A stretch of 32,870 bases of DNA. Source: a virus. Taxonomy: Duplodnaviria > Heunggongvirae > Uroviricota > Caudoviricetes. This document shows, one piece after another, positions 7,109 through 32,870 of this stretch. The notes below the pieces were generated by a model, which was not told where the DNA came from, ran no database searches, and worked only from the letters and a program-made list of their open reading frames with translations. Location of the stretch: the IMG/VR virus record IMGVR_UViG_2737471818_000001; one strand, given 5' to 3'. A program made the translations under genes and the position numbers. Numbering within the stretch: position 1 is the stretch's first letter; each line of letters opens with the position of its first letter.

Positions 7109-7169
7109 CCGTTTAACTCCGTGGTTAAGGGTGAGTGTATTTTCTGTTGTGTGGTGATGGCGGGCTATT

Positions 7170-7194
7170 TGTCAGGGTTGGATAAGGTCTGACA
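7170..7194 (-). promoter_or_regulatory. Candidate Ogr-dependent late promoter element (PF), dyad TGTCAG-N13-CTGACA
   Basis: Perfect 6-bp inverted repeat about 60-85 bp upstream of the FI start codon; P2 late promoters carry a TGT...ACA dyad near -55. Confidence 0.4.
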
Positions 7195-7244
7195 CAACCG
7201 GGGAGCAGGAAAGCGCGGGCAACCGCCCGCCTGAATTACACTGG

Positions 7245-7823
7245 TTATGCGGGCAGTTCCGGCCATGTGATATCGGGGGCATCTTCGGGTTTGACTCTGT
7301 TGAGCATGACCCGATATTTTTTCCATTCATTAAGCGCGGTCGCTTCGTCTTCCGTTGCCATATCCAGATCAACGGCATCCTGCAGGGGGGCAATAGCCGA
7401 TGTTGCAATCATCAGCAGGTTTGATTTTTCCTGCGCCGCCTGCCCCTGACGAAATGTTTTTTCCGCTTCGGCATCGTGGATCCACTTAGCGCCATCCCAT
7501 TTTACATACTCCCCGTCAGGAGCAACCGACACAACGTTATCAGGCAGAGCGCCAAGTTTTTCAATAACAGCGGGCTTACCGGTGCTGATGTCATAGACGG
7601 TTGTCCCGCGGTAGTCCTCCACCCGCGACCATTTATTAGCCTGAGCATCGAAAACAGCCACAAAACCTGCCGTCACTTTTGGGGGCGCGATATCGGTACT
7701 GTAAGCAGGCAAGCCCGTATTAGCAGGGATAAACCCATCAGATTTCCCAATAAATTCATTTGTATCTGAACGAAGGTTATAAAGAATAATTGTCCGGTTT
7801 TCTCCGGTCATTTCAAAAGCCAT
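7245..7823 (-). CDS. G: Tail fiber assembly protein (Tfa), 192 aa
   Basis: Immediately downstream of tail fiber H with a 1-nt start/stop overlap; size and position of P2 gpG. Confidence 0.8.
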   Translation of the reverse strand: MAFEMTGENRTIILYNLRSDTNEFIGKSDGFIPANTGLPAYSTDIAPPKVTAGFVAVFDAQANKWSRVEDYRGTTVYDISTGKPAVIEKLGALPDNVVSVAPDGEYVKWDGAKWIHDAEAEKTFRQGQAAQEKSNLLMIATSAIAPLQDAVDLDMATEDEATALNEWKKYRVMLNRVKPEDAPDITWPELPA

Positions 7824-9658
7824 TATGCAAGCCTCACAATGTAGTTAAACGCAATATTTTTAACGGTGTTTTCTGTATTCCCGGTTGCATGAACGGTCGC
7901 TGTATGTCCGTGATACCCCATAACCACATAATGGTTATGCTCACCGATACCAACCCAGTGATCATGGGGACCAATCCACGTAACATGTGCATGATTACCA
8001 CTCCCCTCAATGCGATCCCCGGCTGACCACGAAATATTCGACGAGTGCATCCCCAGCCCTGAGCCAGGAGTATCCCGGTATGCAGACGTAGCACAATAAC
8101 GAAAGTTATGTACGTGCCATCCCCCCTCAGTGGAGGACTTATTGCCGTAGTCAAAACTGGTTGTTGGTTTTGAACCATAATCAAAAGAGTTGGTATATTT
8201 CGTTCCCAAATCGGTATCGGAAATACTGGCTGTGTGAGCGTGCGATTTAATACCGTCCTGTTCATACGAGAGTACCGCTCGTCCGTCCGGCTTGCCCTTT
8301 ATCGTCTGACCACGCATATCCGGGATAACACCAGAGGGATACGCTACAGCAAGCAATGGATATGCAGATTTATCAAATGACTGCCCCTGCATTAAGGCGT
8401 GAGCGGGTGGAACGGTATCGGATGGCCACGGAATCGGCGCACCGACAGGAAAAGCATCATCGGGTGTCCACGTCGTCCACGGCTGCGTGGAATATTTGCT
8501 CCGCGAATAGCTTCGGGAACTGCTGTACACGCGATAAACCTGCGTTATCCCTGCGCCCTTTAACACCATCAGCGAACCGGCATTATTTTCCGGGTAATGC
8601 AGCGCAGCACTGGTATTGGCATTTGCAGGCTGAAAATACAGACCCGGCGTCTGGTAATTATCCAGATTCTGGTCAGCACCAAGCTCGATGCACTGACCGT
8701 CAAAAATATCCTGTGACGTGACGCTGATATCACCGGCCAGCGAATGTCCGTTAACTTTTCGCTCAGACGGGACGCGACCATTCGCATTATCATTCACCGC
8801 CTTAACCGCTTTCGGTGTCGCGGCGAGGGTCTCAGATGTGCTGTCGGTGGCGCTGCTCAGTTTCACCAGACCTTTCTGCGCCGTGCTCGCGTCCTGAGCC
8901 GTATATTTACCATTAGCAAGGTCATACGCCGTCTTAACCGCTTTCGGCGTCGCGGCGAGCGCCTCAGACGTGCTGTCGGTGGCGCTGCTGAGCTGCACCA
9001 GACCTTTCTGCGCCGTGCTCGCGTCCTGAGCCGTATATTTACCACTGGCAAGGTCATAGGCCGCCTTAACTGCCTTTGGCGTCGCTGCGAGGCTCTCAGA
9101 CGTGCTGTCGGTTGCGCTACTGAGTTGCACAAAGCCTTTTTCTTTCAGCGTGGCGTCAGGATGATTGCGGGACCGCTCATGCTCAGCCAGTTTATCGTCG
9201 ACATAATCCTGCGTGGCCATCACCGTTGTCGCATCAATGGACAGCTCCACCGAGGCGATACTGCTGACAATAATCACCATGCGACAGGTCTGCGCACGCC
9301 CCGAGCCCTCCGCCAGCTCCGGCTTGTAGCTCTCCGCCATATTGGCAACGGCAATCAGCGTGCCTGCGTCATCATACAGACCCAGCTCACGCATCCAGAA
9401 GCCGCCCACCTCAGGAGGAATGACCAGCTCTGCCACGATATAATTTTTATTTTTGTTATCCTGGCTGATTTTATTCAGCGCATGACGCCAGACTTCATTG
9501 ATGAGCTTTACCTGCCCGACGTTCGGCTCCGGCAGTGCGCCGCCGCCATCACCGACGGCCATCGCGGTAAGGTTCACTTTTTTACCACCCGGCACCGTCG
9601 CCGCCGCCAGTTTTGCAGCTCCGGCGGTGGTAATAATTGTTTTAAATTTCGTGCTCAT
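7823..9658 (-). CDS. H: Tail fiber protein H, 611 aa, with internal tandem repeats and a His-rich C-terminal tip
   Basis: N-terminus resembles the P2 gpH baseplate-attachment region; central [19 protein letters not shown] repeats; C-terminal HxH motifs. Confidence 0.85.
8795..9139. repeat. About 2.6 tandem copies of a 132-bp (44-aa) unit inside H
   Basis: Protein repeats [44 protein letters not shown] at residues 174-217, 218-261 and a partial third copy; the DNA repeat also generates the spurious plus-strand ORF 8744-9688. Confidence 0.8.
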
Positions 9659-9668
9659 TATTCCTCAC

Positions 9669-10199
9669 TCATCCGGGATAAACCGTAATAATGTCGCCGT
9701 CATACACCACACCACCGACATACATATGACCGGGAATGTCCTGGATAATATTCAGGCCAATCAGGTGACGGCTGGCAGGTTTCGCATCCGCAATCAGGCG
9801 CTCCATTTCAAAATACATTTCCTCAGAAATGCCGCTTTCCAGCACACCAATATCAAGCCGGAATGTGCCGGGCGGGTCGCTGGTCTCCCACCACTCCGTG
9901 ACGTTGATGACATAGCCGAGTGGCTCCACCACCCGACGAACAGCACCGATAGTGCCTTTGTGGCAGTGAATGAAGTACGCATCACGGATGACCGCGCGCT
10001 TCGTTTCTTCCGGCCAGTTCTCATCCCAGCGGTCGACAGAAAACGCCCACGCCAGCCACGGCAGCAAACTTGCCGGGCAGGTGTCAGGACTCCACAGACG
10101 ACGCAGCGGGACGGGGGTGTTTTCGATATCCGCGCAGGCACGCGCCGCCGCCACCTCAAGCGGTGACGAGCCCACCGGCAACAGACGGGTATCACTCAT
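9669..10199 (-). CDS. I: Baseplate assembly protein I, 176 aa
   Basis: Synteny between J and H; similarity to P2 gpI as recalled. Confidence 0.85.
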   Translation of the reverse strand: MSDTRLLPVGSSPLEVAAARACADIENTPVPLRRLWSPDTCPASLLPWLAWAFSVDRWDENWPEETKRAVIRDAYFIHCHKGTIGAVRRVVEPLGYVINVTEWWETSDPPGTFRLDIGVLESGISEEMYFEMERLIADAKPASRHLIGLNIIQDIPGHMYVGGVVYDGDIITVYPG

Positions 10200-11100
10200 C
10201 CGAGCCCCCGATCACAATGCTGTAATCAGTGCAAAATGACGCCTGCGCACTGCTGAGCACGAGGTCAGCCACCGGCGCGGCCAGCTCCACACGCTGGACA
10301 CCCTCGACATGCAGCGCGGCATAAATGGCAGACAGGCGAATGTCACGCCCGAGGCGGTGCTGTGCACTGATATAGCCCTCCAGCTTTTTCACGGCAGCGG
10401 CGCGAATGGGTTCACTCTCGGGACCGGGATAGAGATAAAGCGAGGCGGTTATCTGGTAGTTAACAATGTCGGCTGACTGCACCGTCACACGGTCTGCGAC
10501 CGGCCTGACATCTTCGGCGTTAAGTGCGTTACGTACCACGGCGAGCAGCTCATCAGAGGCGACGCCGTTGTTTTCACGCGACAGCACAGAAATCGTCACA
10601 CAGGCGGGGGACGGACTGGTTACTGAGATATCTGCGACCCGCCCGTCAGCGCTGCGGCCATGAAACTGATAAGCGCCGACAGACCCGGCCACGCTCATTC
10701 CTTCAAACGCCTGCTGAATGCGCAGACGGTAATCGGTGTCCGACTCCATAACGGCAGGTGTGGGCGGCAGTGTGGTCTCATCGGCAGGCGTGATAACAAG
10801 ACGCCCGACGCTGAAATTTGCACCGATATTATCGAGGTCATTACCGGCGGCATACGCCAGCATGACCGCGCGCGCCGATTCATTCACGCGCTGACGCCAG
10901 ATAACCTCCCGGTAAGCGTTCTCCTGCAGCAGCTTAACAACCGGCTCAGATTCAAGTGTCAGCGTGCGCGCGACCGCCTCCTGCTGTTCCTCGGGATACA
11001 GTGAGACAAGCGTCGCCTTTCGCTCTGCCAGAATGGTTTCATAATCCAGCTCATCCACCACATCAGGCGCAGCGAGCAGGCTCAGGTCAACAATAGCCAT
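10192..11100 (-). CDS. J: Baseplate protein J, 302 aa
   Basis: Similarity to P2 gpJ as recalled; overlaps the I start. Confidence 0.85.
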   Translation of the reverse strand: MAIVDLSLLAAPDVVDELDYETILAERKATLVSLYPEEQQEAVARTLTLESEPVVKLLQENAYREVIWRQRVNESARAVMLAYAAGNDLDNIGANFSVGRLVITPADETTLPPTPAVMESDTDYRLRIQQAFEGMSVAGSVGAYQFHGRSADGRVADISVTSPSPACVTISVLSRENNGVASDELLAVVRNALNAEDVRPVADRVTVQSADIVNYQITASLYLYPGPESEPIRAAAVKKLEGYISAQHRLGRDIRLSAIYAALHVEGVQRVELAAPVADLVLSSAQASFCTDYSIVIGGSDE

Positions 11101-11105
11101 AGTGT

Positions 11106-11456
11106 TTAACTCAGTGGAATGGTGATAGAAAAGGGCTGGCCTGACGTCGACCGCGTGCCGGTGATATCGACATACATCGCGCCGTCATTCTCCCCGCGTT
11201 CAAAGGTGATGGTCGTCAGGCTGACGCGTGGCTCCCACTTCTGGATCGCGGAATAGCACGCGGCCATAATCTGCAGGCGTAGCGCCGGGGTCTGCGGCTG
11301 ATCAATAAGCGCCGACAGCAGCGAGCCGTATTCACGACGCATCACACGCGAGCCAACCGGCGTGACCAGAATGTCGCGCACGCTCTGCCTGATATGCTCA
11401 ACCTCAGAAATACTGAGCCCGGTATGACTGTTCATGCCCAGATAGCTCGTTGTCAT
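11106..11456 (-). CDS. W: Baseplate wedge protein W, 116 aa
   Basis: gpW/gp25-like small baseplate protein; synteny V-W-J. Confidence 0.85.
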   Translation of the reverse strand: MTTSYLGMNSHTGLSISEVEHIRQSVRDILVTPVGSRVMRREYGSLLSALIDQPQTPALRLQIMAACYSAIQKWEPRVSLTTITFERGENDGAMYVDITGTRSTSGQPFSITIPLS

Positions 11457-12094
11457 TTTGTCCCCTGCGTCCAGCTATCCCCGCCTTTAACACCGCCGTG
11501 GCCGTGGTCATCCACCTGCACACCGTTTGATTTAAACGTGCCGCCGCCGTGCTCGATGTTGCCGCTCATCTTCCCGCCCTTTTGCACCTCAAGCGTGGCC
11601 GTGGTCAGTTTGTTGGTGCAGACCACCTCGGGGGTATCGAGTGTGATACGGGTGGACGCCTTGACCAGTACCAGCGGCACAGTTGCGGTAATGGCGTCTG
11701 ACGCGGTGACGTCAGCGGTTTTAATACCACTCACCGTGAGTGACCCGCTTTCAGGCTCATACTCGATAACCGCCCCGTCAGGAAAGGAAATGTGAAGGGC
11801 ATCAGGCGAGGCCGACGGCGCGGGATGGTCATCAGAGAAAATGCCGGGCAGCACAAAAGCGGTGTCGAGCTCGCCGCCAATGGCAAGAATCAGCACCTGC
11901 TCGCCAACCGAAGGAGCCCACCAGGCACGCGAGCGACCGGCGCGGCAGGTCAGCCAGTTTAGCCAGGTGGTTTGCATCCCGCCGGTCTGGACACGGCAGA
12001 GCCCCTCATCGGGATTGACTGCAGTCACAATGCCGGTGCGGATAAGATTACGGATAGCGCGGGCGATATCCTGAATGGAATTTAAAGTATTCAT
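11453..12094 (-). CDS. V: Baseplate spike protein V, about 213 aa from MNTLNSIQDIARAIRNLIR
   Basis: Similarity to P2 gpV as recalled; ATG at 12092-12094. The track ORF extends upstream only through a non-ATG start. Confidence 0.85.
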   Translation of the reverse strand: MNTLNSIQDIARAIRNLIRTGIVTAVNPDEGLCRVQTGGMQTTWLNWLTCRAGRSRAWWAPSVGEQVLILAIGGELDTAFVLPGIFSDDHPAPSASPDALHISFPDGAVIEYEPESGSLTVSGIKTADVTASDAITATVPLVLVKASTRITLDTPEVVCTNKLTTATLEVQKGGKMSGNIEHGGGTFKSNGVQVDDHGHGGVKGGDSWTQGTK

Positions 12095-12429
12095 GGGGAA
12101 AGGATGCCGCCGGGGAAGGCCAGCGGCAATCGGGCGGGGTTTTGTGGGGGTTGAAACAACAACCAACAACCCAGAAAAACTATTTCCTAATTGCTCAATG
12201 CTTATAAGTAATTATCCAAATCCTTCCATAAGCCCCACTTACAAGCCAACAATGAACATCGTTACCACAAGTAACTTTTTGTGACCCCCTATCCAGTTAA
12301 AATAGCGCAGAATAAAGCATAAAAATTGAAACTATGGATAACCACATTGGAAAGATTTATACTTGTTAATATGTTAACCATTTGAAACCACTGCAGTTCA
12401 AACTTCTGAAAAGGAGCAATTTTCAACCT

Positions 12430-13359
12430 ATGGAAGTAACATTAAGCTTGAAAGATATTACGTCAATTATTGCAATAATCATCTCTCTTATTGCATTATA
12501 TTTTGCCGTAAGTAATTATAGGCGAAAATCCGGCACTCATATAAGAGGTCAATTTTGTATAAGTGAAAGTATAAACGCTGAAGACAAATACATCAGCAGT
12601 ATTACTTTGGAAAATTTCAAAGACAAATCCGTTATAATTTTCAAGATCTTCCTAAGAGTTGGAAGTAACTATTACATAGAGATTGATGACTTCGAGCGAG
12701 CCCCAAAAATACTAAAACCGTATGAATCCTATACTAATAACTACGACCCCGTGGATTTTTACTGTTTAAACATGAATCGTATTAATCTTAACAAACTTTT
12801 GAATTCAAAAAAAACAAAGATTAATATTGTGCTATCCACCTCTCATGGTAAGTATGTGGTAAAAGAATGGATAAATCTGTGGGATCCCATATATGATTTT
12901 TTCAAAAACCATATGACAGCTTATATCATCCCAATGACACCCATTGAAAAGGTGGGGTATTTTGGCTATAATTTCAAATACTTAGTCAAATTAAAAACTG
13001 AGGATGGATATAAAGAAACCATTCCAATTTATTCTAGTGACATTAATTACCCCAGGTTTAATAAATTTAGACTAACAGTGGAGTCACTTTCATCACGTGA
13101 AAAACTTGAAGACTTCCTAATAAATCAGATGATAATCGGAAATCTTAAATGTACTGATATTGAAGTTATCGACGCTGAACAACTAAGAAAAAGAAGTTAT
13201 CACCACGAATTTAAAGAAGAATATGAAGCAAAGCACTATAGTCTATTTTTCTATTTAGTTATTGGGAGACTATTAACCGTCTTTAGCAACATCAGGCTTC
13301 ACTTCATCAACCTCAAAAACAAAAAAAAGAGAAAACAATCCAACAATACAGACAGATAA
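12430..13359 (+). CDS. Low-GC cargo protein, 309 aa, with an N-terminal transmembrane anchor; function unknown
   Basis: ATG at 12430 preceded by AAGGAG (12411-12416); hydrophobic helix ITSIIAIIISLIALYFAV; Lys/Asn-rich; strongly AT-rich relative to flanking V and S; opposite strand to the late operons. Confidence 0.7.
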   Translation: MEVTLSLKDITSIIAIIISLIALYFAVSNYRRKSGTHIRGQFCISESINAEDKYISSITLENFKDKSVIIFKIFLRVGSNYYIEIDDFERAPKILKPYESYTNNYDPVDFYCLNMNRINLNKLLNSKKTKINIVLSTSHGKYVVKEWINLWDPIYDFFKNHMTAYIIPMTPIEKVGYFGYNFKYLVKLKTEDGYKETIPIYSSDINYPRFNKFRLTVESLSSREKLEDFLINQMIIGNLKCTDIEVIDAEQLRKRSYHHEFKEEYEAKHYSLFFYLVIGRLLTVFSNIRLHFINLKNKKKRKQSNNTDR

Positions 13360-13378
13360 TTAATTTTTATAAATAGTA

Positions 13379-13425
13379 GTAAGATGTGAACAACCATTAA
13401 ATCGTATGAATTGCTCACATCTTAC
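13379..13425. terminator. Hairpin between the cargo gene and S, possible bidirectional terminator
   Basis: Inverted repeat GTAAGATGTGA(ACAA) ... (TTGC)TCACATCTTAC with a loop of about 17 nt, placed between two convergent genes. Confidence 0.4.
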
Positions 13426-13430
13426 CCTAA

Positions 13431-13877
13431 TCACCCCAAATGCTTTACAATCAACATATCTATGAGCTGTTTATCGTCTTGGTTAAATCCGAGTAACTGG
13501 CGTTCCGGGTATTGCACGTCCTGAGCGTGAGGGTTAGGCCTGTCTTTGAGTCCGAGCTGATGAATCTGTGCAATACGTTGCACTTTGCCGGTAAACTCCA
13601 CCACAGCAGCATCATTGCGGCCACTGGCTTTCATGTAGCGACTCGTTCGCAGCTTCTGAAACATCGCCCGTTTAATTCGCCCTTTTTTTGCCCTGAGCGG
13701 CTGACGCTTTCTCTCCTGATATGGTGTGCCGTCAGGCGCTTTTTGCTGTTTGATACGTTGCTGTTGCGATTTGCGCAGTTCCTTAGCTATTTCTGCAGCC
13801 AGCTTACGCCGCGACTCTGGTGACAATGCCCCGATAAGCCCCGCAAGTTTGTCGTCAAAAGGCTTTAATTCATTCAT
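13431..13877 (-). CDS. S: Tail completion protein S, 148 aa
   Basis: Similarity to P2 gpS as recalled; synteny R-S. Confidence 0.85.
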   Translation of the reverse strand: MNELKPFDDKLAGLIGALSPESRRKLAAEIAKELRKSQQQRIKQQKAPDGTPYQERKRQPLRAKKGRIKRAMFQKLRTSRYMKASGRNDAAVVEFTGKVQRIAQIHQLGLKDRPNPHAQDVQYPERQLLGFNQDDKQLIDMLIVKHLG

Positions 13878-14337
13878 CCCATTTACTCACCAGCTCACCA
13901 TTGATATAGAGTTCGGTCGGACGGGTGACAGGCTCCGGCAGGGGTGGCTCCGGGACATAGCTAACATGTAACGCGCCGTTTTCTTCCCGGACAAGGGTGC
14001 GCTCAGTCAGTTGCAGGCTGATACTGATATCAACATTATCCCCGTCATTTAAATCCATCTGGAATCGATAGCCCTTTTTGCGCCCCTCATCAAGCGTGCA
14101 GATATCCGGCTGGTTTTCTCGCAGCCACGCCGCCACCGGCACAAAAATCAGGTCGGGATCGCCAACAAAGTCACACACAATCACATTCAGCGTGTATTTC
14201 TTTTCATGGGACAACGAGGCCGCGAGACGCGCATCGATATTCCCCTCATCGGCAAAGATGCGCATCATCTCGGGGTTATTCAGGAGCTGCGGGACGGCGT
14301 CATTCAGCGCTTTGCGCAGGCTTTTCATTTTCTGCAT
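13870..14337 (-). CDS. R: Tail completion protein R, about 155 aa from the ATG at 14337 (or 14328)
   Basis: ...LNVIVCDFVGDPDLIFVPVAAWLRENQPDI...ELYINGELVSKWDE resembles P2 gpR as recalled; the longer track ORF begins at a non-ATG start. Confidence 0.8.
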   Translation of the reverse strand: MQKMKSLRKALNDAVPQLLNNPEMMRIFADEGNIDARLAASLSHEKKYTLNVIVCDFVGDPDLIFVPVAAWLRENQPDICTLDEGRKKGYRFQMDLNDGDNVDISISLQLTERTLVREENGALHVSYVPEPPLPEPVTRPTELYINGELVSKWDE

Positions 14338-14590
14338 CGATTCTATCCTGACAGTCTTTGATGGTTTCGACCTTAATCGCACAGGCGGTGAGCGCATGCT
14401 CAAGCCTGCGAATATCGACACTCAGATCACCGTTAGTGACGGGCTCGCTTCCCGGCATCGGGCAGAGGCTCACCTTCGGACAGGCGTTGTATACAACGGG
14501 CGGCGGAGGCGCAGCCTGTTCGGATGTGCAACCGGCGCACAGCATCAGGCAGCTTATCGCTGTACCAGCGGCGTAACGTCTCGTTTTCAT
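14300..14590 (-). CDS. lysC: LysC, Rz1-like outer-membrane spanin, 96 aa
   Basis: Cys-containing hydrophobic N-terminus followed by a proline-rich stretch (AAPPPPVVY); lies in the +1 frame overlapping lysB as in P2. Confidence 0.7.
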   Translation of the reverse strand: MKTRRYAAGTAISCLMLCAGCTSEQAAPPPPVVYNACPKVSLCPMPGSEPVTNGDLSVDIRRLEHALTACAIKVETIKDCQDRIDAENEKPAQSAE

Positions 14591-14858
14591 TCATCAGCCT
14601 CGTTATAGTTTCTTCCCGTCTTGCCGCCTGCTCACCGGCAACGGCCAGCTCATCTCCGAGTCTGACTTGCGCATCCTCATTCGCCCTGGCGATTCGCTGC
14701 GATACGGCAAGTTGATTTTTCAGCATGCCAATCGTTGTCTTTTGCGCACTGGCAACACGGTTCGCTTTCTCAAAGGAACGGGATAAACTCGCGTTATCGT
14801 GCCGTAGCCACAGCACCACGGCGAGCAACCCGGCCAGCAGAATCATCAGCACTTTCAT
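14433..14858 (-). CDS. lysB: LysB, Rz-like inner-membrane spanin, about 141 aa from MKVLMILLAGLLAVVLW
   Basis: N-terminal transmembrane helix then a coiled-coil-like region; ATG at 14856-14858 overlaps the K stop. Confidence 0.75.
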   Translation of the reverse strand: MKVLMILLAGLLAVVLWLRHDNASLSRSFEKANRVASAQKTTIGMLKNQLAVSQRIARANEDAQVRLGDELAVAGEQAARREETITRLMNENETLRRWYSDKLPDAVRRLHIRTGCASAARCIQRLSEGEPLPDAGKRARH

Positions 14859-15364
14859 GGCATCCCCTTTACGCAGTAAGCCCGTTCCCGCGCGCGGCGG
14901 TTCTCCAGCCCTTTGTTTTTTGTGCCGTTGACATACACCCAGCGGGTGAGCTGGTCGCACGCCTGCCACCACTGATGACGTTTGATATACGAGACCAGCG
15001 TCGACCTGCAGGCCGCACCGGTTCCGACGTTAAACGCAAAACTGACCAGCGAGTCATAGACGCGCGGTGGCATATCCACCGGCACACAGACCGCGAGCCG
15101 TTGCTCGACGTTGAGCACATCGGAAACGAGATTCTCCGCCGCCTGTTGCTCGGTGATATCCCCTTTCGGGACCACCCCGGCAGTGTGCCCGATGCCCGAC
15201 GTCCACACTCCCGCGCTGCACTGGTAAGGTGTCAGGCGACATCCTTCGAGGTCGGCAATCAGTGCCAGCCCCTCGGGCGAGGTGTTCAGCAGACGAAAGT
15301 CAGGCATCAGCGCGGCCAGCACCAGCACGGCGGCCACACTGCAGCGTTTAATGATTGAGCTCAC
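14855..15364 (-). CDS. K: Endolysin K, T4-lysozyme-like with a signal-anchor (SAR-type) N-terminus, 169 aa
   Basis: E...C...T catalytic-triad-like motif in LIADLEGCRLTPYQCSAGVWTSGIGHT; hydrophobic N-terminus SVAAVLVLAAL. The start at 15364 is GTG; an alternative ATG is at 15307. Confidence 0.75.
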   Translation of the reverse strand: MSSIIKRCSVAAVLVLAALMPDFRLLNTSPEGLALIADLEGCRLTPYQCSAGVWTSGIGHTAGVVPKGDITEQQAAENLVSDVLNVEQRLAVCVPVDMPPRVYDSLVSFAFNVGTGAACRSTLVSYIKRHQWWQACDQLTRWVYVNGTKNKGLENRRARERAYCVKGMP

Positions 15365-15569
15365 GGGCAGCCTCCTTATCGAGTCCGAGTGAGGTCAGGT
15401 AGCGGTAGGTTTTGCGCTTAAACCAGTAATTCGTCAGCGCGGTAAAAATGGCGCAGGCACTCCCCACATAGAGCGCCAGCTTTTCGGGGGACATCGCCCC
15501 GAAATACGCCAGCCCCACGGCCAGCCAGTAAGCGATAAACGTCGTGATTTTTTCCACACTCAGTCCCAT
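15348..15569 (-). CDS. Y: Holin, 73 aa, two predicted transmembrane helices
   Basis: Small membrane protein located between X and the endolysin, the holin position in P2. Confidence 0.7.
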   Translation of the reverse strand: MGLSVEKITTFIAYWLAVGLAYFGAMSPEKLALYVGSACAIFTALTNYWFKRKTYRYLTSLGLDKEAARELNH

Positions 15570-15763
15570 AAATTCACCGTCTCGGTTTTCGGGGCGCTGT
15601 CGGTTTCGGGCAGTTCGATTGCAGTGCCTTGCGGCAGAATAACGCCCAGCTCCGACAGCCCCGGATTTGCCTGCAGCACCGCTTCAACGACGCCCTCAGT
15701 GCGCCCGTAATACCTGGCGCAAATCGCATCGAGGGTGTCACCCTGCATCGCCCTGACCTTCAT
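15560..15763 (-). CDS. X: Tail protein X, about 67 aa from MKVRAMQGDTLDAICARYYGRTEG
   Basis: Similarity to P2 gpX as recalled; ATG at 15761-15763 forms an ATGA overlap with the L stop. Confidence 0.8.
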   Translation of the reverse strand: MKVRAMQGDTLDAICARYYGRTEGVVEAVLQANPGLSELGVILPQGTAIELPETDSAPKTETVNLWD

Positions 15764-16269
15764 CAGATTTGACCGACAATACAGCGCGGCTTGTCCTGAA
15801 TACGCGCCACAGACCAGCGCATATCCCGCCACAGCTCATCGATAACCGCCTCGGTGCTTTCCGCCTTGCGGTCGCCTCTTGCCGTCGCATCGATGCCGCG
15901 ATAGCGCTCAAACAGCGTGGCACTGGTCATGGCGCAGACAGCGCGGAAATAGTGGAAACAGCGCACGCTTTCGCCATCGATATTATCGGCAGGCACATCG
16001 GCCAGCGTGTCATGCCCTGCGACCATCTGCTCAACCCGCCACAGGGCAAGCTCCGCATTGGTTTCAGCCATACCGGCTTTAATCGCATCATTCAGGCGCA
16101 GCGCGGAAACGGTCTGCTCCAGACGCATCAGCTCGCGCACACGCTTCGGATCCACATCAGGGAAAAAGAAGGTATTTTTTATTACCGGCTCGCTCACGCC
16201 CGGTGGTGGTATCACCACGCCCGGCACATCCTGCGACTCTTTTTTTGGCTCAATAATCACTGTCGTCAT
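15763..16269 (-). CDS. L: Head completion protein L, 168 aa
   Basis: Similarity to P2 gpL as recalled; synteny M-L-X. Confidence 0.85.
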   Translation of the reverse strand: MTTVIIEPKKESQDVPGVVIPPPGVSEPVIKNTFFFPDVDPKRVRELMRLEQTVSALRLNDAIKAGMAETNAELALWRVEQMVAGHDTLADVPADNIDGESVRCFHYFRAVCAMTSATLFERYRGIDATARGDRKAESTEAVIDELWRDMRWSVARIQDKPRCIVGQI

Positions 16270-16368
16270 GACAACCTCGGGTAATGGGTGGGCGGTGGAC
16301 GCCGGTCGCAGTCATGGCAATCAATACCCGCATTGACCGGCGTGCCGCCCGGCTCGGGGAGCGCTCTG

Positions 16369-17124
16369 TTAACCTGCGGCTTTTGCCGCTTTCGGGGGAC
16401 GCCCGCGCCGTGCCGCCGGTTTAGCGGCAGGTTTGCGCGTGCGCGGTTTATTCTGTTTTGGTGCAGGTTCTGCTTTTGGTTTCAGCGCACGCTCGAGCTG
16501 TTCAATATCCTTTTTCACACCGACAGTTCGCTCTAACTGGATCGCCCGCTGCAGGTGCGTCAGCGCGTCAGTCAGGCGGACATCCTCACGCAGCACGTAG
16601 CCGGTAATTTTGTGCAGCTTCGCGCGCACGATATCCGGCATGTCTGCCCGTTCGGTCAGTGCAATGGTGTCGAGCAGGAGCTGCAGCCCGACAGGCTGTT
16701 TCGCATCGAGCAGGCGCTGCGCTGACAGGGCGACCTCTTCGGCCAGCAGATACGGCGTGGTGCGCCGGTGGCCGCCGGTCGGCATGGTCAGGCCATAGGT
16801 CATCGCATAGCGGGCAATCTCCAGCGCACCGGCGATATCATCCGCATCGAGACGCCACAGCATGACGGTCATCACAATGTCATCCTGCGCCCCTTTTCCG
16901 GCGCTGAGGACACCCGACACCCACGGCAGATAGAACGGCAGCAGCTCACGCTTTTTGTCTGCCTTGCGTTCATTGGAGCGGATTTGTTTTAACGTGCGAC
17001 AGTCTGCGGCCAGCTTGACGAGCATCTGCTCATAGGCAGTTGCATTGCGCAGCGGAGCAGCAGCCCGCCGCGCAGTTTCAGAGGCCGAGACCCGCATCAT
17101 GTGACGCGCTGCGGGACTCGTCAT
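16369..17124 (-). CDS. M: Terminase small (endonuclease) subunit M, 251 aa
   Basis: Similarity to P2 gpM as recalled; synteny N-M-L. Confidence 0.85.
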   Translation of the reverse strand: MTSPAARHMMRVSASETARRAAAPLRNATAYEQMLVKLAADCRTLKQIRSNERKADKKRELLPFYLPWVSGVLSAGKGAQDDIVMTVMLWRLDADDIAGALEIARYAMTYGLTMPTGGHRRTTPYLLAEEVALSAQRLLDAKQPVGLQLLLDTIALTERADMPDIVRAKLHKITGYVLREDVRLTDALTHLQRAIQLERTVGVKKDIEQLERALKPKAEPAPKQNKPRTRKPAAKPAARRGRPPKAAKAAG

Positions 17125-17127
17125 GGC

Positions 17128-18195
17128 TTATTCCCCGCTTTCCGGTGCGGCAGGTGCAGTGAAGTCACCGAGGTTGATGTTTTCAATCAGGCAACCGGCG
17201 GCGTAAGCCTCGACCACATAGTCAATACTCATCGACTCGTAGTTTTCGACGCGGTCTTTCTTCGGCTCCTCAATGATGGCGCGGCGGTGCGCATCATCCA
17301 TGAAGTAAATCGACAGGTTATCGAGGCGCGTCACCATCAGGGCATTCGCCGGGAAGTACGGCACGCGCACAGCAGGCAGGTTGCCGATACGCTTCTGGCT
17401 GATGATGATGTCAGCAGCCAGCGTTTCGCTGTTTTCCTGCGCCTTGTTGACCAGCGGGAAATACTTATCCGCCATCAGCTTACGCCCAGTGATAACGACG
17501 AGCTCCGGGTCATCCTGATAAATCTCATCAATCAGGTTGGTGGTCGCATCCATCACCAGCGCATCGAGGTTTTCATAGTCGCCGTTTTTACCCACGCGGA
17601 TCACATCGGAAATGACCTTGCCGTCATCATCGGTGACGTTGGACATCACGCGCGCGGCAGCTTCATTGCGGTACTTCTGCAGCCAGCCCACCGCGACATC
17701 CTGCAGCATCGGGTTCGTTTTGCGGTTGGAAGTCTCCGCGCGGGTGATACCGTTGAAACCAGCCATGATGAAATCGAGCGACTGACGCTTGATAATCGCG
17801 TCGCGGATACGGGTCTGAAAGTCCTGAAAACGCGCCCACAGGTCGAGCTGTTTGTAACGGATATGGAAATCAAAGTTGATTTGCGCGCACTCGTATTTGT
17901 TGGATTCGAGCGCAGTGAAATCAGCGGTCTTACGCTCGTCATCGGCGGCGGTGTCCGTGGTGCTCGCAATCGTACCGTTGACGCCGACCCCGACTTTTTC
18001 GCCTTTCAGCTCGTCGACCGGCACGATATTGATTTTGGTCAGAAACGCGGATGACGCCTGCAGGGTGGTCATCAAGGTCTGCGTCACGGACGGCTCAACG
18101 GTGAATTTTTTCGCCACGTCATCGGTGTCGACGCCGTTCAGCTCCGCCACGCGGGACAGGTAAGCATTGAATTTAAAGCGGGTATCTTTACGCAT
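17128..18195 (-). CDS. N: Major capsid protein N, about 355 aa from MRKDTRFKFNAYLSRVAELNG
   Basis: Strong similarity to P2 gpN as recalled; ATG at 18193-18195 is preceded by AGGA. Confidence 0.9.
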   Translation of the reverse strand: MRKDTRFKFNAYLSRVAELNGVDTDDVAKKFTVEPSVTQTLMTTLQASSAFLTKINIVPVDELKGEKVGVGVNGTIASTTDTAADDERKTADFTALESNKYECAQINFDFHIRYKQLDLWARFQDFQTRIRDAIIKRQSLDFIMAGFNGITRAETSNRKTNPMLQDVAVGWLQKYRNEAAARVMSNVTDDDGKVISDVIRVGKNGDYENLDALVMDATTNLIDEIYQDDPELVVITGRKLMADKYFPLVNKAQENSETLAADIIISQKRIGNLPAVRVPYFPANALMVTRLDNLSIYFMDDAHRRAIIEEPKKDRVENYESMSIDYVVEAYAAGCLIENINLGDFTAPAAPESGE

Positions 18196-18256
18196 TGTTA
18201 TTCCTGTTTTTCTACAAAGGGGCATCAGGCCGGGTGACGCGCACCCGGCAGGTCTG

Positions 18257-19111
18257 TCAGCAGTTGGTCAGCAGCTCGTCGCCCGTTCCGCCTTTCGACT
18301 TCTCGCGGCGCGGCTGGCGATAGCTTTCGGTGTTATCGAGGGAGCTTTTCAGGGCGTTAAGCGCCTGCGCGCTCTGCGTGGTCTGGCTGGTCACGTCCTG
18401 CTTTAGCTGTGCAAAGGCGGTTTCCAGCTCAGTGACGCGCGTTTCGGTGGCGGTCAGGTTGGTCTGTACCTGCTCAGAGACGGCGGTCACCGCCTCATGC
18501 ACATCAGCAAGACGGGCGTCATCGCTGACCTGTTTGCGGCTGAAAATCGATTTGACCTTGTCGGTCAGGCTGTTGAGCATGGTCTCGGGAACATCCTCGA
18601 ATTCCAGCTCAGCAAGGGAGGCCACAGAGAAGAGGTCGCCCGGCTGGTCTTTTTTACCGGCGAGCGGGTTCTGCACCGCACGGCTGCAGAATTCGAGGTA
18701 TTCCGTGCCGAGGCTTGCCGGGTCATCGGTCACGGCGAGACCAATCAGATAGCATTTACCGGTATTTGAGAAATTCGGGCGAATTTCCATGGAGGTGTAA
18801 ACCTTCTGACCGGCACGCACCATGCTCACCAGTTCATCGAGCGGTGCAATCTTGCCGAACAGCGCTTTTTTGCCGTTCAGCGCAGAGTCATCACTGATGA
18901 TTTCCGCTTTCACTTCGGTCACGTCGCCATAGCGTTTAAACGGACTGTCAGGCCAGAGGCTTTTGATGTGTTCGAGGTTAATGCGGCAACCGTAGACGCG
19001 CGGGTCAAAGGTATCCGCCATGTCCTGAATGTCATCCCCGTTGATGACACGGCCATCGCAGGTGTCACCCTCGACGCCGATGCGAAACCATTTAGAAACT
19101 TTCTTTGCCAT
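18257..19111 (-). CDS. O: Capsid scaffolding protein O, 284 aa
   Basis: Similarity to P2 gpO as recalled; first gene of the O-N-M-L operon, divergent from P. Confidence 0.9.
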   Translation of the reverse strand: MAKKVSKWFRIGVEGDTCDGRVINGDDIQDMADTFDPRVYGCRINLEHIKSLWPDSPFKRYGDVTEVKAEIISDDSALNGKKALFGKIAPLDELVSMVRAGQKVYTSMEIRPNFSNTGKCYLIGLAVTDDPASLGTEYLEFCSRAVQNPLAGKKDQPGDLFSVASLAELEFEDVPETMLNSLTDKVKSIFSRKQVSDDARLADVHEAVTAVSEQVQTNLTATETRVTELETAFAQLKQDVTSQTTQSAQALNALKSSLDNTESYRQPRREKSKGGTGDELLTNC

Positions 19112-19277
19112 TGTTCAGGTGTCCTGATGTTGGGTTTTAGGTTCGGGTGTAGTTTCCCGACTCCGCCCCGCATCAGCCACCGCTTGCAGACGTGTCCCCC
19201 CTGACACAACAGGGGGTTAGCGATAATGCCCCGCTATTTCCTTAGCCTTGCCCCGTATTCACTGACACGAGGCAACC
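19112..19277. promoter_or_regulatory. Divergent late promoter region between O and P, with a GC-rich dyad CCCCCTG-N6-CAGGGGG at ~19197-19216
   Basis: 166-bp gap between divergently transcribed late operons; the dyad begins with TGT and spans an ACA; P2 has Ogr-dependent promoters here. Confidence 0.4.
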
Positions 19278-21047
19278 ATGACCATTTCAACTGACCTCTC
19301 CCTTTTGCACGACCCGCGACGACAGGCGCGCCTGCTGTTCTGGCAGGGGTTTTCCGTGCCACAAATCGCCGACACGCTGCAGGTCAAGCGCCCGACCGTG
19401 CAGAGCTGGAAACAACGTGACGGCTGGGAGGAAACCGCCCCGCTTAACCGCGTGGAATCCACGCTCGAGGCGCGCCTGATTCAGCTTTATGCAAAGCCTG
19501 ACCTGACGCCGCATGATTTCAAGGTCGCTGATTTTCTGTCACGCCAGATGGAACGGCTCGCGCGTGTCAGCCGCTACGGCCAGACCGGAAACGAGGCAGA
19601 TTTAAATCCCAACATTGCCAGCCGCAACAAAGGCGACCGCCGCAAGCCAAAACGTAATTTTTTCAGCGATGAGGCTATCGAAAAGCTCGAAGAGATTTTC
19701 TTCGATCAGTCCTTTGAGTATCAGCTCAACTGGCACAAGGCCGGTATCGCGCACCGTATTCGCCACATCCTCAAATCGCGCCAGATTGGCGCAACATTCT
19801 ACTTTGCCCGCGAGTCACTGCTGCGCGCCCTGAAAACCGGGCAAAACCAGATATTTTTGTCGGCCAGTAAGACGCAGGCTTACGTGTTCCGAAAGTACAT
19901 CATCGCCTTTGCGCGCATGGTCGAGGTTGACCTGTCAGGCGACCCGATTGTCATCGGCAACAACGGCGCAGAGCTGATTTTTCTCGGGACAAATTCCAAC
20001 ACAGCGCAGAGTCATAACGGCGACCTGTATGTCGATGAAATCTTCTGGATCCCTAACTTTCAGAAACTGCGCAAAGTCGCCTCGGGGATGGCGTCACAGT
20101 CGCACCTGCGCACCACCTACTTTTCAACCCCCTCGACGCTGGCACATGGCGCCTATCCGTTCTGGTCAGGCGAGCTGTTTAACCGGGGACGCAGCAGCGC
20201 CGCCGAGCGTGTCGACATCGATATCAGTCATAAGGCGCTGGCCGGGGGCGTGCTGTGCTCGGACGGACAGTGGCGGCAGATTGTCACCATCGAGGATGCG
20301 CTCGCCGGGGGATGCACGCTGTTTAATCTGGATCAACTGAAACAGGAAAACAGCGCCGATGATTTCCGCAACCTCTTCATGTGCGAGTTTGTCGACGACA
20401 AGGCGTCGGTATTCCCGTTCGAGGAGCTGCAGCGCTGCATGGTCGATGCGATGGAAGAATGGGAGGACTTCGAGCCGTTTTCTGACCGTCCGTTTAACTG
20501 GCGTCCGGTCTGGATTGGCTATGACCCGTCACATACCGGCGACAGCGCAGGCTGCGCGGTACTGGCTCCGCCACTGGTTGCCGGTGGCAAGTTCCGCATC
20601 CTTGAGCGTCACCAGTGGAAAGGCATGGATTTTGCGACGCAGGCCGAGGCCATCCGCGAGCTGACCGAAAAATACTGCGTCGAGTATATCGGCATCGATG
20701 CGACCGGCATAGGCCAGGGTGTTTACCAGCTCGTGCGCTCGTTCTTCCCGGCGGCGCGCGCCATTCGCTACACGCCGGAAATGAAAACCGCGATGGTGCT
20801 GAAAGCGAAAGACACCATCCGACGCGGGTGTCTGGAATACGACACCGGTGCAACCGACATCACACAGTCATTTATGGCTATCCGTAAAACCATGACCAGC
20901 AGCGGGCGAAGCTCCACCTATGAGGCCAGCCGCAGTGAAGAGGCCAGCCACGCGGATATTGCATGGGCAACCATGCACGCCCTGTTAAACGAGCCGCTTT
21001 CCGCCGGTAGCGGTATGCATTCAACGTCAATTCTGGATATTAACTGA
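19278..21047 (+). CDS. P: Terminase large (ATPase) subunit P, 589 aa
   Basis: Similarity to P2 gpP as recalled; GAGG ribosome-binding site upstream of the ATG. Confidence 0.9.
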   Translation: MTISTDLSLLHDPRRQARLLFWQGFSVPQIADTLQVKRPTVQSWKQRDGWEETAPLNRVESTLEARLIQLYAKPDLTPHDFKVADFLSRQMERLARVSRYGQTGNEADLNPNIASRNKGDRRKPKRNFFSDEAIEKLEEIFFDQSFEYQLNWHKAGIAHRIRHILKSRQIGATFYFARESLLRALKTGQNQIFLSASKTQAYVFRKYIIAFARMVEVDLSGDPIVIGNNGAELIFLGTNSNTAQSHNGDLYVDEIFWIPNFQKLRKVASGMASQSHLRTTYFSTPSTLAHGAYPFWSGELFNRGRSSAAERVDIDISHKALAGGVLCSDGQWRQIVTIEDALAGGCTLFNLDQLKQENSADDFRNLFMCEFVDDKASVFPFEELQRCMVDAMEEWEDFEPFSDRPFNWRPVWIGYDPSHTGDSAGCAVLAPPLVAGGKFRILERHQWKGMDFATQAEAIRELTEKYCVEYIGIDATGIGQGVYQLVRSFFPAARAIRYTPEMKTAMVLKAKDTIRRGCLEYDTGATDITQSFMAIRKTMTSSGRSSTYEASRSEEASHADIAWATMHALLNEPLSAGSGMHSTSILDIN

Positions 21048-22151: not shown

Positions 22152-23264
22152 TTAACCAACCCTTGCTTTTTTATATGGACCACAACTCCAACTAAAGAAA
22201 TTCTTACCTAACTTATACCATTTATCAGAAAGCACTGGTGTTAGGTGAGGATTATATTTTTTTAAACTTCCCTTTTGTATATATTTCAATGTATTACTGA
22301 GCAAATTCTCTCCAAAACCATCATAACTTACACAAGCAGTGTTGCAGCTACAGCGTTTTGATTCGATATACTCACAATCATATTTTATATCAAGCTTCTT
22401 TAATATCGGACGCCAATATGCACCATGTTTTCGATCGAGTTCAAGGGCTGTTTTAAAATCAAAACCTTTTTTATGGTCAATGTAAAATTTTACTGATTCA
22501 TCTACGGAGCAAAGATGCTTAAAGAAAATGAGAGATTTTTCTTTTTGTTGAAATTGACTTTGACTTCTTAATACATCTTCAATTGTCGATAAAGGAACTA
22601 GAGATTCTATTTCATGTACATCTAAAATCTCAACGAAACCTGAGCGAGTGATTTGTGAGCCCAAAAAATGTGAGCAAGTACCCCCGAATGGGGCTCTAGG
22701 ATGTTTTTTGTCATTATCCACAATACAAAAAACTATCTCATTATTTTGAATTGCACGCTCGAATACATCCTTAGTACTGCCCCCACCGCCATTTAGAGCG
22801 ATAAAACCCATTTCGCAGCGAGATAAGTTAATACCTTCGGCATAATGAGCCGCTATAACTCTAAAAAAATCAGAATCCAAAGGATTTTCACATACTATTT
22901 TCGTTTTTTGCAATTGTGCCGAGTCATTAAAATACAATGGACCACAAACAAATTTAAAAGATTCACCGTTCTGAACCCATCTAAATGATTTATCACTAAT
23001 ATTAAAGTCGACAGATACATAAAATGAGACCTGGTTCAAGATAGCATAGTACTCTGTTAGACCCGACAAAGCCTCTTGCGCGTAACTTTTTGATGAAAGG
23101 CTATAAAGCCCGCTTTGATCATTGATAATAGTTTTAAAAAAAACCCTTGCCCCTATAACCAAGTGTTTTTGTTCAGCAAATGCCCGAAGTATATTCTCAA
23201 CCGCTATGGCAAATGAATTATTTAGCACCTTCTCAGGTGTCGCATTTTCGATATGAATCAACAT
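22152..23264 (-). CDS. Cargo protein, 370 aa, uncharacterized partner of the upstream ATPase; possible nuclease-like effector
   Basis: ATG 2 nt after the ATPase stop; low GC; hydrophobic strand followed by acidic motif IVFCIVDNDKK; glycine-rich LNGGGGST; C-terminal Cys cluster CSCNTAC...WSCGP. Confidence 0.75.
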   Translation of the reverse strand: MLIHIENATPEKVLNNSFAIAVENILRAFAEQKHLVIGARVFFKTIINDQSGLYSLSSKSYAQEALSGLTEYYAILNQVSFYVSVDFNISDKSFRWVQNGESFKFVCGPLYFNDSAQLQKTKIVCENPLDSDFFRVIAAHYAEGINLSRCEMGFIALNGGGGSTKDVFERAIQNNEIVFCIVDNDKKHPRAPFGGTCSHFLGSQITRSGFVEILDVHEIESLVPLSTIEDVLRSQSQFQQKEKSLIFFKHLCSVDESVKFYIDHKKGFDFKTALELDRKHGAYWRPILKKLDIKYDCEYIESKRCSCNTACVSYDGFGENLLSNTLKYIQKGSLKKYNPHLTPVLSDKWYKLGKNFFSWSCGPYKKARVG

Positions 23265-23266
23265 AA

Positions 23267-24823
23267 CTACTTACCAGAGAAAAAGCCAACCGGCCAATTT
23301 TGTAGGAAACCATTCTCGTCAAAATAAGATTTCTTAACTATGGTCTGCTGCTTTTCATCTTTTTCAAATACCAGTATTGAAATATCATCCTGTGAAAGAT
23401 TTTCATTTTCCTCAATATATTCACCAAGTGCTTCAATCATGGTCTGGCTATGTGTCTCAAAAATTATCTTCAAATCCACATTGTTTTCTTTTGCTTTAGT
23501 TACTACTTTTGCAAAAATACTTGCTAAATTATGTTGATATGACGGATGTAAATGCAATTCTGGCTGCTCAATGATAAATGTTATAGGTTTTCTAACCGTG
23601 GTAGCACGACGTTCTGTCTCAAGCCAAATGGCTGTAACTATCGGCAAAACCTGAGAGTAACCAAACCCCATATCACTAACATTATAGTTCTCACTATTTT
23701 CACCGGTATTTATTAAAATTGCAAAGTGAGAGCCACTTTGTTCAACCTTAATAATGAAATCAAAATTTAACTTTGTCCAATCTTCAAATTTTGATTTATC
23801 AGCCGGCCTTAATGAATTCAAAAGCATTGCAAGATTGGAACCAGTATGATCTATCTCATTAACCTGTAAATCTTGAAAGCGATAAAATCTTTCTGATGTA
23901 GCACGCAGTGGAGCTATGTACTTTACATTTCTGAATGAATCTGACAAGGATGTATTTATTATATCTATAAGATTATTAATATTCCATCCAATTATAAATG
24001 GATATAACTCATTCATTATTTCATCATGTTGAAGTTCAAAGTTTCTACTAAAAACTTTTTGTTCCTTGAATAGAAAAGCAACTAATTTACTAGCGTACGC
24101 TTTGGGTATAAAGCCAATTCTTTTGAATGCCTCTGTCACTTGATTTATATCAGATTTAGTATGGAAATATTTCTTTATATATTTCGCTGCTGAATCAATA
24201 AATGACAATTCTAATGCCCTGTCATGCCTAGAATGTCTCAAATAGAATGATGTGCTTGGAGGAGGACTATCTTCCTTACCCTTCAAAATTAGATTGGGTA
24301 TGAACTGCCCAAGATTTTTAGCTATTATCCCATCACGCTCTATTGTTTTATCATCTGATTCAATGAGTAACTTAACATTACTGTTCTCATCCATTGAAAT
24401 AAATATTGTTAAATCAGCCAATATAAGCTTAATCGTTTTTGTTTTTGTTTTTTTATCTTTAGAGTAAACAGTCAACTCTGCTTCAACATCTGTTGGTTGC
24501 TTTGCTAAATCAGTAAAACGATAATATGTATATCTTTGTGAAACCTCTGGCGGAATTGAGAGTGAAAAACTGAACGTAATTTCTTTTTTTTCAGAGTTTC
24601 GGGAAAGTACATCTGTAAAATCGCCAAAATCCACATATCGCCCATACCATAGTATTGGACCAGTAGTATTTTCTTCTACAGATTGACGAAGTAAAGGAAA
24701 TGTACGCAATAGGGAACTTTTACCACTGCTGTTCTTACCAACAAATACTGTAATTGGTTTTAAATCAATAAAAGTTTTGTTGACAAAGCTCCTGAAGTTT
24801 TGAAGACCTATACCCTTAATCAT
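23267..24823 (-). CDS. Cargo OLD/ABC-type ATPase (AAA_15/AAA_21-like), about 518 aa from the ATG at 24823
   Basis: Walker A VFVGKNSSGKSSLL; Walker B/D-loop FIIEQPELHLHPSYQ; H-loop ETHSQ; long insert between them. The track ORF extends to a TTG at 24895 that overlaps the cos-like site; the GGAG-preceded ATG at 24821-24823 is the likelier start. Confidence 0.8.
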   Translation of the reverse strand: MIKGIGLQNFRSFVNKTFIDLKPITVFVGKNSSGKSSLLRTFPLLRQSVEENTTGPILWYGRYVDFGDFTDVLSRNSEKKEITFSFSLSIPPEVSQRYTYYRFTDLAKQPTDVEAELTVYSKDKKTKTKTIKLILADLTIFISMDENSNVKLLIESDDKTIERDGIIAKNLGQFIPNLILKGKEDSPPPSTSFYLRHSRHDRALELSFIDSAAKYIKKYFHTKSDINQVTEAFKRIGFIPKAYASKLVAFLFKEQKVFSRNFELQHDEIMNELYPFIIGWNINNLIDIINTSLSDSFRNVKYIAPLRATSERFYRFQDLQVNEIDHTGSNLAMLLNSLRPADKSKFEDWTKLNFDFIIKVEQSGSHFAILINTGENSENYNVSDMGFGYSQVLPIVTAIWLETERRATTVRKPITFIIEQPELHLHPSYQHNLASIFAKVVTKAKENNVDLKIIFETHSQTMIEALGEYIEENENLSQDDISILVFEKDEKQQTIVKKSYFDENGFLQNWPVGFFSGK

Positions 24824-24894
24824 TCCTAGCTCCATTAGTTCAATAAAATCAATCGATTTTGAGACAATCTTAATATCTTTGACAGGCGCGCGCA

Positions 24895-24913
24895 ATGCTA
24901 TCCCCGCCTCGCC
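24895..24913. other. Candidate cos site (cohesive-end sequence)
   Basis: Minus-strand read GGCGAGGCGGGGATAGCAT matches the P2/186 19-nt cohesive end as recalled at about 17 of 19 positions and in the expected orientation between the A side and the Q side. Confidence 0.55.
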
Positions 24914-32552: not shown

Positions 32553-32870
32553 TCACTCTCCACATTTGAATGTCAGACGAGCGACGCCATGTAATCCTGC
32601 ACCTTCTGTCTTCAGGTCAACTATCTGCATTTTTTTGCCCTGAGTAACACAGAAATGGGCTGCATCATTTTTTACTATATTTTCTGCACCAGATATTCTG
32701 CCCCTGGCTAAAGAAGCTTCGGCTTCGGTGTAGTATTGGTTATCGAGTTTACGCTGAATATTACTTTTATATGCAAGACCAAATTTACCGATACTTGTCT
32801 CATCATTATGCACAGCACAACCAGACATAATAAAAATACTAATTAATGATATAGCAGCTATCTTTTTCAT
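32553..32870 (-). CDS. Putative lipoprotein, 105 aa, outside the prophage on the int side
   Basis: Signal peptide with a lipobox-like ...FIMSGC; low GC; start codon at the last three bases of the window. Confidence 0.5.
   Translation of the reverse strand: MKKIAAISLISIFIMSGCAVHNDETSIGKFGLAYKSNIQRKLDNQYYTEAEASLARGRISGAENIVKNDAAHFCVTQGKKMQIVDLKTEGAGLHGVARLTFKCGE

Follow-up and report, generated by a model that had tools for sequence, protein, structure and literature searches.

Two stretches of symmetric DNA, one between the divergent genes O and P and one upstream of FI, raise the question of whether the symmetry itself marks the sites at which the late-gene activator of a P2-like prophage would bind. 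The window (the whole stretch of DNA analyzed here, 32,870 nucleotides) had previously been interpreted from its letters alone, and in that sequence-only reading the TGT...ACA dyads in these two strings (19193–19216, TGTCCCCCCTGACACAACAGGGGG; 7170–7194, TGTCAGGGTTGGATAAGGTCTGACA) were taken to stand where P2 late promoters carry the Ogr-responsive element. The strings do occur at these positions, and they overlap P2-homologous activator sites over 22 of 24 and 21 of 25 nucleotides, respectively. We put the probability that these bases are part of predicted Ogr-responsive late promoters of a P2-like prophage, orthologous to those of P2, at roughly 90%. Homology to the P2 late promoter sites thus supports the proposed place and function, whereas the dyad registers are not the conserved ones.

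Prophage map and activator gene

The window contains a complete P2-like prophage situated between E. coli yegQ and yegR (window 1–261 and 32553–32870; L180), its far end falling within yegR. Gene order and Pfam matches identify the prophage as P2-type, and it is a P2-like member of the Peduoviridae. According to the ORF map and Pfam, its map runs in reverse with respect to the standard P2 map:

489–710, minus strand: ogr homologue (PF04606 Ogr_Delta, E = 6e-20; 67% identity to P2 Ogr), followed with rising coordinate on the same strand by D, U, T, E and FII
5915–7108, minus strand: FI, followed by a tail-fiber assembly gene, H, I, J and W
11453–12094, minus strand: V, followed by S through L, M and N
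18257–19111, minus strand: O
19278–21047, plus strand: P, followed by Q, also on the plus strand
Past Q: a cargo pair, then replication gene A, cox, the C-type repressor and the integrase

Over the O/P intergenic region, the window shows 100% identity with the yegQ/yegR prophage of E. coli EC11 and UTAK-6, a locus that matches the window at an offset of 901, and the closest deposited phages are 73–86% identical over the O/P region. The tail-fiber gene is annotated as pseudogene fragments in EC11, as against an intact 611-aa ORF in the window (7823–9658).

The ogr homologue lies at 489–710; an ORF at 410–676 that was also considered is in the wrong frame. A CX2C-X22-CX4C zinc-finger motif is visible in the encoded protein, the same motif that has been described, together with the consensus TGT-N12-ACA at the four late promoters, for P2 (PMC3931495). 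Ogr binds at inverted repeats centered near −55 and requires contact with RNA polymerase's alpha subunit (PMC3152322), and suppressors of rpoA109 are located in ogr (PMC11434276).

Predicted late promoters, activator sites and neighboring cargo

The P2 late promoters PP/PO, PV and PF and their Ogr sites are known (Christie & Calendar 1985, cited via PMC3931495 and PMC3152322). RefSeq record NC_001895 served as the P2 reference for annotated activator sites and mapped start sites; it lists a single activator site for pO and pP (3057–3087; starts at 3016 and 3127), a pV site (10239–10266; start at 10308, on the A of the V ATG) and a pF site (17555–17583; start at 17626–17628). With the J protein as query, 53 related prophage loci were gathered from bacterial genomes, and their O/P, FI and V upstream regions were aligned with those of P2 and the window (33 loci containing the region for O/P, and 50 loci each for FI and V). 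Alignment with the P2 late promoters, which had been suggested along with the dyads, returns homologous sites at O/P, V and FI, in a conserved register that differs from that of the dyads. The conserved element is GTTGT-N12-(A/C)(C/A)AAC, three copies of which are present in the window (alignment of P2 and ~50 related prophages), and the inner six bases of this GTTGT-N12-ACAAC-like element are the published TGT-N12-ACA (PMC3931495). Sites lie upstream of all four late operons, P–Q, O–S, V–G and FI–D, as defined by the ORF map, Pfam and the way RefSeq annotates the identical prophage in E. coli. The sites and the associated promoter elements are as follows:

19189–19210, minus strand: predicted Ogr-type PO/PP activator site, GTTGT-GTCAGGGGGGAC-ACGTC, center 19199.5, ungapped alignment to P2 3057–3087
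19243–19248, plus strand: PP −10 hexamer TAGCCT, inside the invariant block GGCAAGGCTA (33 loci), placed as in P2 relative to start 3016
19151–19156, minus strand: PO −10 hexamer GAAACT, inside the invariant block GGGAAACT, homologous to the region upstream of P2 start 3127
12139–12160, minus strand: predicted PV activator site, GTTGT-TTCAACCCCCAC-AAAAC, center 12149.5, homologous to P2 10239–10266
12101–12129, minus strand: PV core, with −35-like TTGCCG (12124–12129), a 17-bp spacer and −10-like CATCCT (12101–12106)
7177–7198, minus strand: predicted PF activator site, GTTGT-GTCAGACCTTAT-CCAAC, center 7187.5, with the half-sites of P2 PF
7138–7143, minus strand: PF −10 hexamer AAAATA, conserved as GAAAATA or GACAATA (50 loci), homologous to the region upstream of P2 start 17626–17628

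At O/P, the single site lies midway between the divergent PO and PP and is common to both. The P2 pO/pP site maps by ungapped homology to window 19184–19214, no gap interrupts the alignment between the −10 blocks of PP and PO in 33 of 33 loci, and CTGTTGTGTCAG within the site is nearly invariant (33 loci; 41 unique variants). Transfer from P2 predicts that transcription from PP starts at G19255 (plus strand) and that from PO at G19144 (minus strand), with the same separation of 111 bp as in P2. On the plus strand, the P2-homologous register reads CGT-N12-ACA (19191–19208). The promoter-proximal half-site ACGTC is a poor match and varies among relatives, which carry CCATC, ACTTC and ATCAG types, and its contribution is therefore uncertain. 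Comparison of relatives revealed no link between Ogr sequence and the type of this variable half-site: Ogr proteins that are 71–94% identical share one type, and near-identical Ogr proteins occur with different types.

Adjoining the O/P site, the hexamer TTAGCG (19217–19222; CGCTAA on the minus strand) is invariant in 33 of 33 genome loci; the viral-contig set is not informative on this point, the hexamer being part of the search pattern. It lies at about −38 to −33 of PP and 19–20 bp from the −10 hexamer, too far for a normal −35, and has no symmetric counterpart on the PO side.

Upstream of FI, the P2 pF site maps by ungapped homology to window 7174–7202. Across 50 loci, TGT is invariant, CCAAC is 80–90% conserved and the spacer is variable. 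The PF start, again transferred from P2, is predicted at ~7131–7133 (minus strand), and the distance from site to −10 is 1 bp shorter than in P2. Between the PF site and its −10 hexamer, at roughly −44 to −31, lies a GACAAATAGCC box (7153–7166, minus strand) that is conserved in many but not all relatives, a second group having a different sequence there; this box contributes one arm of the FI dyad discussed below.

At PV, GTTGT shows little or no variation and AAAC is conserved (alignments of 50 and 41 loci), and the −35-like TTGCCG matches at three of six positions only. The V start codon (12092–12094) is not preceded by a Shine–Dalgarno sequence (CATCCTTTCCCC-ATG), and relatives share this lack. 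Because P2 transcription starts on the A of this ATG, V looks leaderless throughout the group. About 75 bp of backbone-like sequence had been expected upstream of V, and this holds: similarity extends from the ATG (12094) to the GTTGT at 12156–12160, ~67–71 bp, and then ends.

Sequence homology, strict spacing, conservation across relatives and the presence of an activator gene are established here. From the center of the site to the inferred start, the distance is 55.5 bp for PP, PO and V (measured to the A of its start codon) and ~55 bp for PF, and the spacing between site and −10 is ungapped relative to P2 at O/P and within 1 bp of that in P2 at PV and at PF. All three window sites match TGT-N12-ACA at five of six positions in the P2-homologous register, exact matches being absent; the P2 sites themselves match at 5/6, 4/6 and 5/6 (in the order O/P, V, F), none at 6/6. 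Against the extended GTTGT..ACAAC, PO/PP, PV and PF score 8/10, 9/10 and 9/10 in the window and 8/10, 7/10 and 9/10 in P2. Across the 50 loci aligned for each of FI and V, only GTTGT, a weaker (C/A)(C/A)AAC 12 bp further on, and the −10 hexamers are conserved, and the 12 bp between the half-sites vary freely. As read from these alignments, the conserved unit is asymmetric, pairing a strong half-site, GTTGTnTCA, with a weak one, nnAAC, at a distance of 12 bp.

An exact search of the window for TGT-N12-ACA gave nine matches, compared with 6.3 expected, and none at a late promoter, so the literal consensus is useless as a pattern here. When GTTGT-N12 had to be followed by at least three of the five bases of ACAAC, the whole window yielded 10 matches (6.1 expected), by itself no significant excess; only the PF and PV sites reach four of five matches. 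One loose GTTGT-N12 match (13373–13394) falls inside the S/cargo hairpin region and was judged to be due to chance. A scan of 7000–19400 for consensus sigma-70 promoters returned 12 promoter-like matches, none of them at PP, PO, PV or PF. What exceeds chance is the phylogenetic footprint of the conserved register, not the dyad registers.

Two cargo modules lie beside the late operons:

12382–13359 (RefSeq start equivalent 12430), plus strand: S–V cargo ORF, 309–325 aa, opposite to the late genes
22152–24895, minus strand: cargo pair by Q, in the P2 old/tin position

The gap between S and V measures 71–79 nt in 14 enterobacterial cargo-less relatives versus 1336 nt in the window, where it holds a single opposite-strand ORF at the position of P2 orf30 (insertion ~12163–13430); Pfam, PADLOC, PHROGs and NCBIfam gave no credible match for this ORF. 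PV is intact beside the insertion, with backbone kept for ~70 bp upstream of V. The interval from the S stop codon to the end of the cargo ORF contains an inverted repeat that is perfect over 11 bp, GTAAGATGTGA...TCACATCTTAC, and has a loop of 25 nt (13378–13424, minus strand); with the A/T-rich run behind it, this repeat may be a bidirectional terminator. The pair by Q is likely to be an anti-phage defense pair of uncertain type: it comprises a 542-aa AAA_15/AAA_21/DUF3696 ATPase with PADLOC matches to NsnB (7e-55), PDC-M55A (3e-46), HEC-03B and AriA (3e-31), all of its NCBIfam matches being far below cut-off, and a 370-aa partner (22152–23264) with no match in Pfam, PADLOC, PHROGs or NCBIfam. 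The cargo modules inserted just outside the late-promoter elements, with late regulation left intact.

Inverted repeats at the predicted late promoters

The late promoters of this sublineage contain GC-rich inverted repeats, and it is possible, if doubtful, that these repeats are not passengers but form functional structures. The repeat at PV (12105–12128), TGCCGCTGG/CCGGCGGCA, whose GC-rich arms (12105–12113 and 12120–12128) fill the 17-bp spacer, is the better candidate. These arms covary, with changes on both sides in six of nine pairs and 74% of cells paired among 41 relatives; pairing amounts to 72.8% in register versus at most 53% when the arms are slid against each other, and the DNA fold has a z of −2.6. 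Within the 48 nt upstream of V, 13 of 14 cargo-less relatives, in which S abuts V, have a hairpin of at least −12 kcal/mol in strength, compared with 12 of 25 cargo-bearing ones, a comparison uncorrected for relatedness. P2 lacks the hairpin in its PV spacer and has a separate annotated terminator after S, and the U-tract of the hairpin in the window is weak. If functional, the PV-spacer repeat may act as a 3′ terminator, attenuator or stabilizer of the upstream O operon, placed between the −35 and −10 of the next promoter, and the repeat at O/P (19197–19216) may be a weaker analogue acting at the DNA level.

The symmetric elements contained in the two strings are:

19193–19216, plus strand: O/P string, with a 7-bp inverted repeat CCCCCTG-N6-CAGGGGG inside it (19197–19203 and 19210–19216)
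7170–7194, plus strand: FI dyad TGTCAG-N13-CTGACA, a perfect 6-bp repeat (7170–7175 and 7189–7194), center 7182

The O/P repeat overlaps the activator site, and its center coincides with the conserved half-site rather than with the activator dyad. As a cruciform or as the target of a second regulator, it could be a separate functional element that adjusts the bidirectional promoter in one sublineage, although we consider this very unlikely. The repeat is perfect over 7 bp, its fold as single-stranded DNA is marginal (z = −2.0), and its pairing distribution is bimodal, with at least six of seven pairs formed by 12 of 33 loci from genomes and by 19 of 41 unique variants (136 sites from genomes and viral contigs, collapsed to 41 unique sequences). 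The outermost pair varies, being C–G in some loci and A–T in others. However, the CCCC/GGGG core shows no compensatory changes among the 41 unique variants, only single-sided ones, and disruptions on one side persist (CAGGGAT, CAGGCGT and CAGGAGT). Because each half also occurs alone, CCCC without GGGG in L014 and GGGG without CCCC in L007 and L108, the pattern looks like the outcome of lineage history and recombination and not of a constraint on pairing. Lying upstream of both inferred start sites, the repeat would be transcribed from neither late promoter; nor does it resemble a terminator, its stem running into TTAGCG without a T-run and the terminator scan making no call. P2, moreover, functions without it.

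It is also highly improbable that the activator recognizes the dyads as originally parsed (TGT...ACA from 19193, and TGTCAG-N13-CTGACA at 7170–7194). They are perfect or near-perfect inverted repeats that overlap the P2-homologous sites, and TGTCAG is common to the O/P and FI elements; CTGACA recurs at O/P because the half-site extension GTTG[TGTCAG] is conserved. Their spacing, however, is not N12. At O/P, the TGT at 19193–19195 pairs with ACA at N8, N10 or N13 only, and the N13 arrangement has all three pairs complementary in 3 of 33 loci. This TGT is limited to the clade of the window (the window, four viral contigs and some E. coli genomes), the nearest other relatives having TGC at this position (TGCACTTC versus GACACGTC in the window, minus strand). 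At FI, the distance from TGT to ACA is N19, and the center of the dyad is displaced by 5.5 bp towards the promoter with respect to the conserved element (7182 versus 7187.5), that is, ~50 bp rather than ~55 bp from the predicted start. Just 4 of 50 relatives keep every pair of the FI dyad (mode, two to three of six pairs), and it is missing from P2; the conserved register retains four of five pairs in 36 of 50 relatives. Folded as single-stranded DNA, the FI dyad does no better than shuffled sequence (z = −0.9).

Repeats of this size are, furthermore, frequent: the window holds 259 perfect inverted repeats whose arms measure 6 bp or more and whose spacer does not exceed 20 bp (0.79 per 100 bp), and such a repeat covers half or more of ~13% of random 31-bp intervals. 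Judged as dyads, the two strings are not beyond chance. The alignments present them as apparent by-products, the FI dyad joining two motifs that are each conserved on their own (the left half-site in its extended form, GTTGTGTCAG, and the GACAAATAGCC box) and the O/P repeat being a lineage-specific, G/C-rich flank of the half-site. That the symmetry is mere coincidence in intergenic DNA devoid of any regulatory element can be given next to no credence: inverted repeats and loose consensus matches are indeed common in the window, but the half-sites and the −10 spacing are strictly conserved in ~50 otherwise divergent loci and coincide with experimentally annotated activator sites and start sites of P2.

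Comparison with P2 and other activator systems

Late-promoter function at the flagged sites, the reading we favor, is already known biology. By analogy with P2, which is ~73% identical across the region, Ogr binding, the start sites and a dependence on Ogr and the alpha subunit would be expected here as well. In such a scheme, the three copies of the GTTGT-N12-ACAAC-like element would serve four promoters (PO and PP together, PV, and PF). After the onset of replication, the prophage's own Ogr would bind each element ~55 bp upstream of the start, and its contact with the C-terminal domain of RNA polymerase's alpha subunit would recruit the sigma-70 holoenzyme to promoters that have a −10 hexamer and, presumably, no usable −35. 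By itself, the late-promoter finding neither settles nor opens a question and is mainly useful for annotation, in that it fixes the coordinates and register of three activator sites and four late promoters. As a search pattern, GTTGTnTCA with nnAAC 12 bp away is better than TGT-N12-ACA (~50 loci).

The closest known system is that of the P2 late promoters. P2 and the window have the same context (P–Q, O...S, V...G and FI...D) with one site for the divergent O and P, and they share the GTTGT left half-site, the N12 spacing and the −10 hexamers TAGCCT, GAAACT and AAAATA. In both, the sites are centered ~55 bp from the starts, and the cognate activator is a zinc-finger protein of 72–73 aa (67% identical). 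They differ in the central 12 bp and in the weaker half-site, which is ACGTC in the window and CCATC in P2 at O/P, and AAAAC and CAAAT, respectively, at PV. In the window, the site-to-−10 distance at PF is reduced by 1 bp and the 5′ leader of O by 7 bp. Its PV spacer is GC-rich and contains an inverted repeat, whereas that of P2 is AT-rich, and P2 has no counterpart of the G/C inverted repeat that surrounds the O/P half-site.

Phage 186 B, PSP3 Pag and the Delta proteins of satellite P4 and phiR73 are likewise PF04606 activators with TGT-N12-ACA-type sites near −55, and PSP3 is among the BLAST matches. The Ogr, B, Delta and Pag activators reportedly substitute for one another among these elements, so this prophage could probably be exploited by a satellite of the P4 type; promoters of P4 have an additional site in a promoter-proximal position. 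A broader parallel is offered by class I activator-dependent sigma-70 promoters, such as lac with CRP at −61.5. Here, too, a dimer-type site lies upstream on one face of the helix and the activator contacts the alpha C-terminal domain, a likeness of mechanism and not of family membership: CRP combines cNMP binding with a helix-turn-helix fold, in contrast to the zinc finger of Ogr, and recognizes a different site, whereas the position in this prophage is −55.
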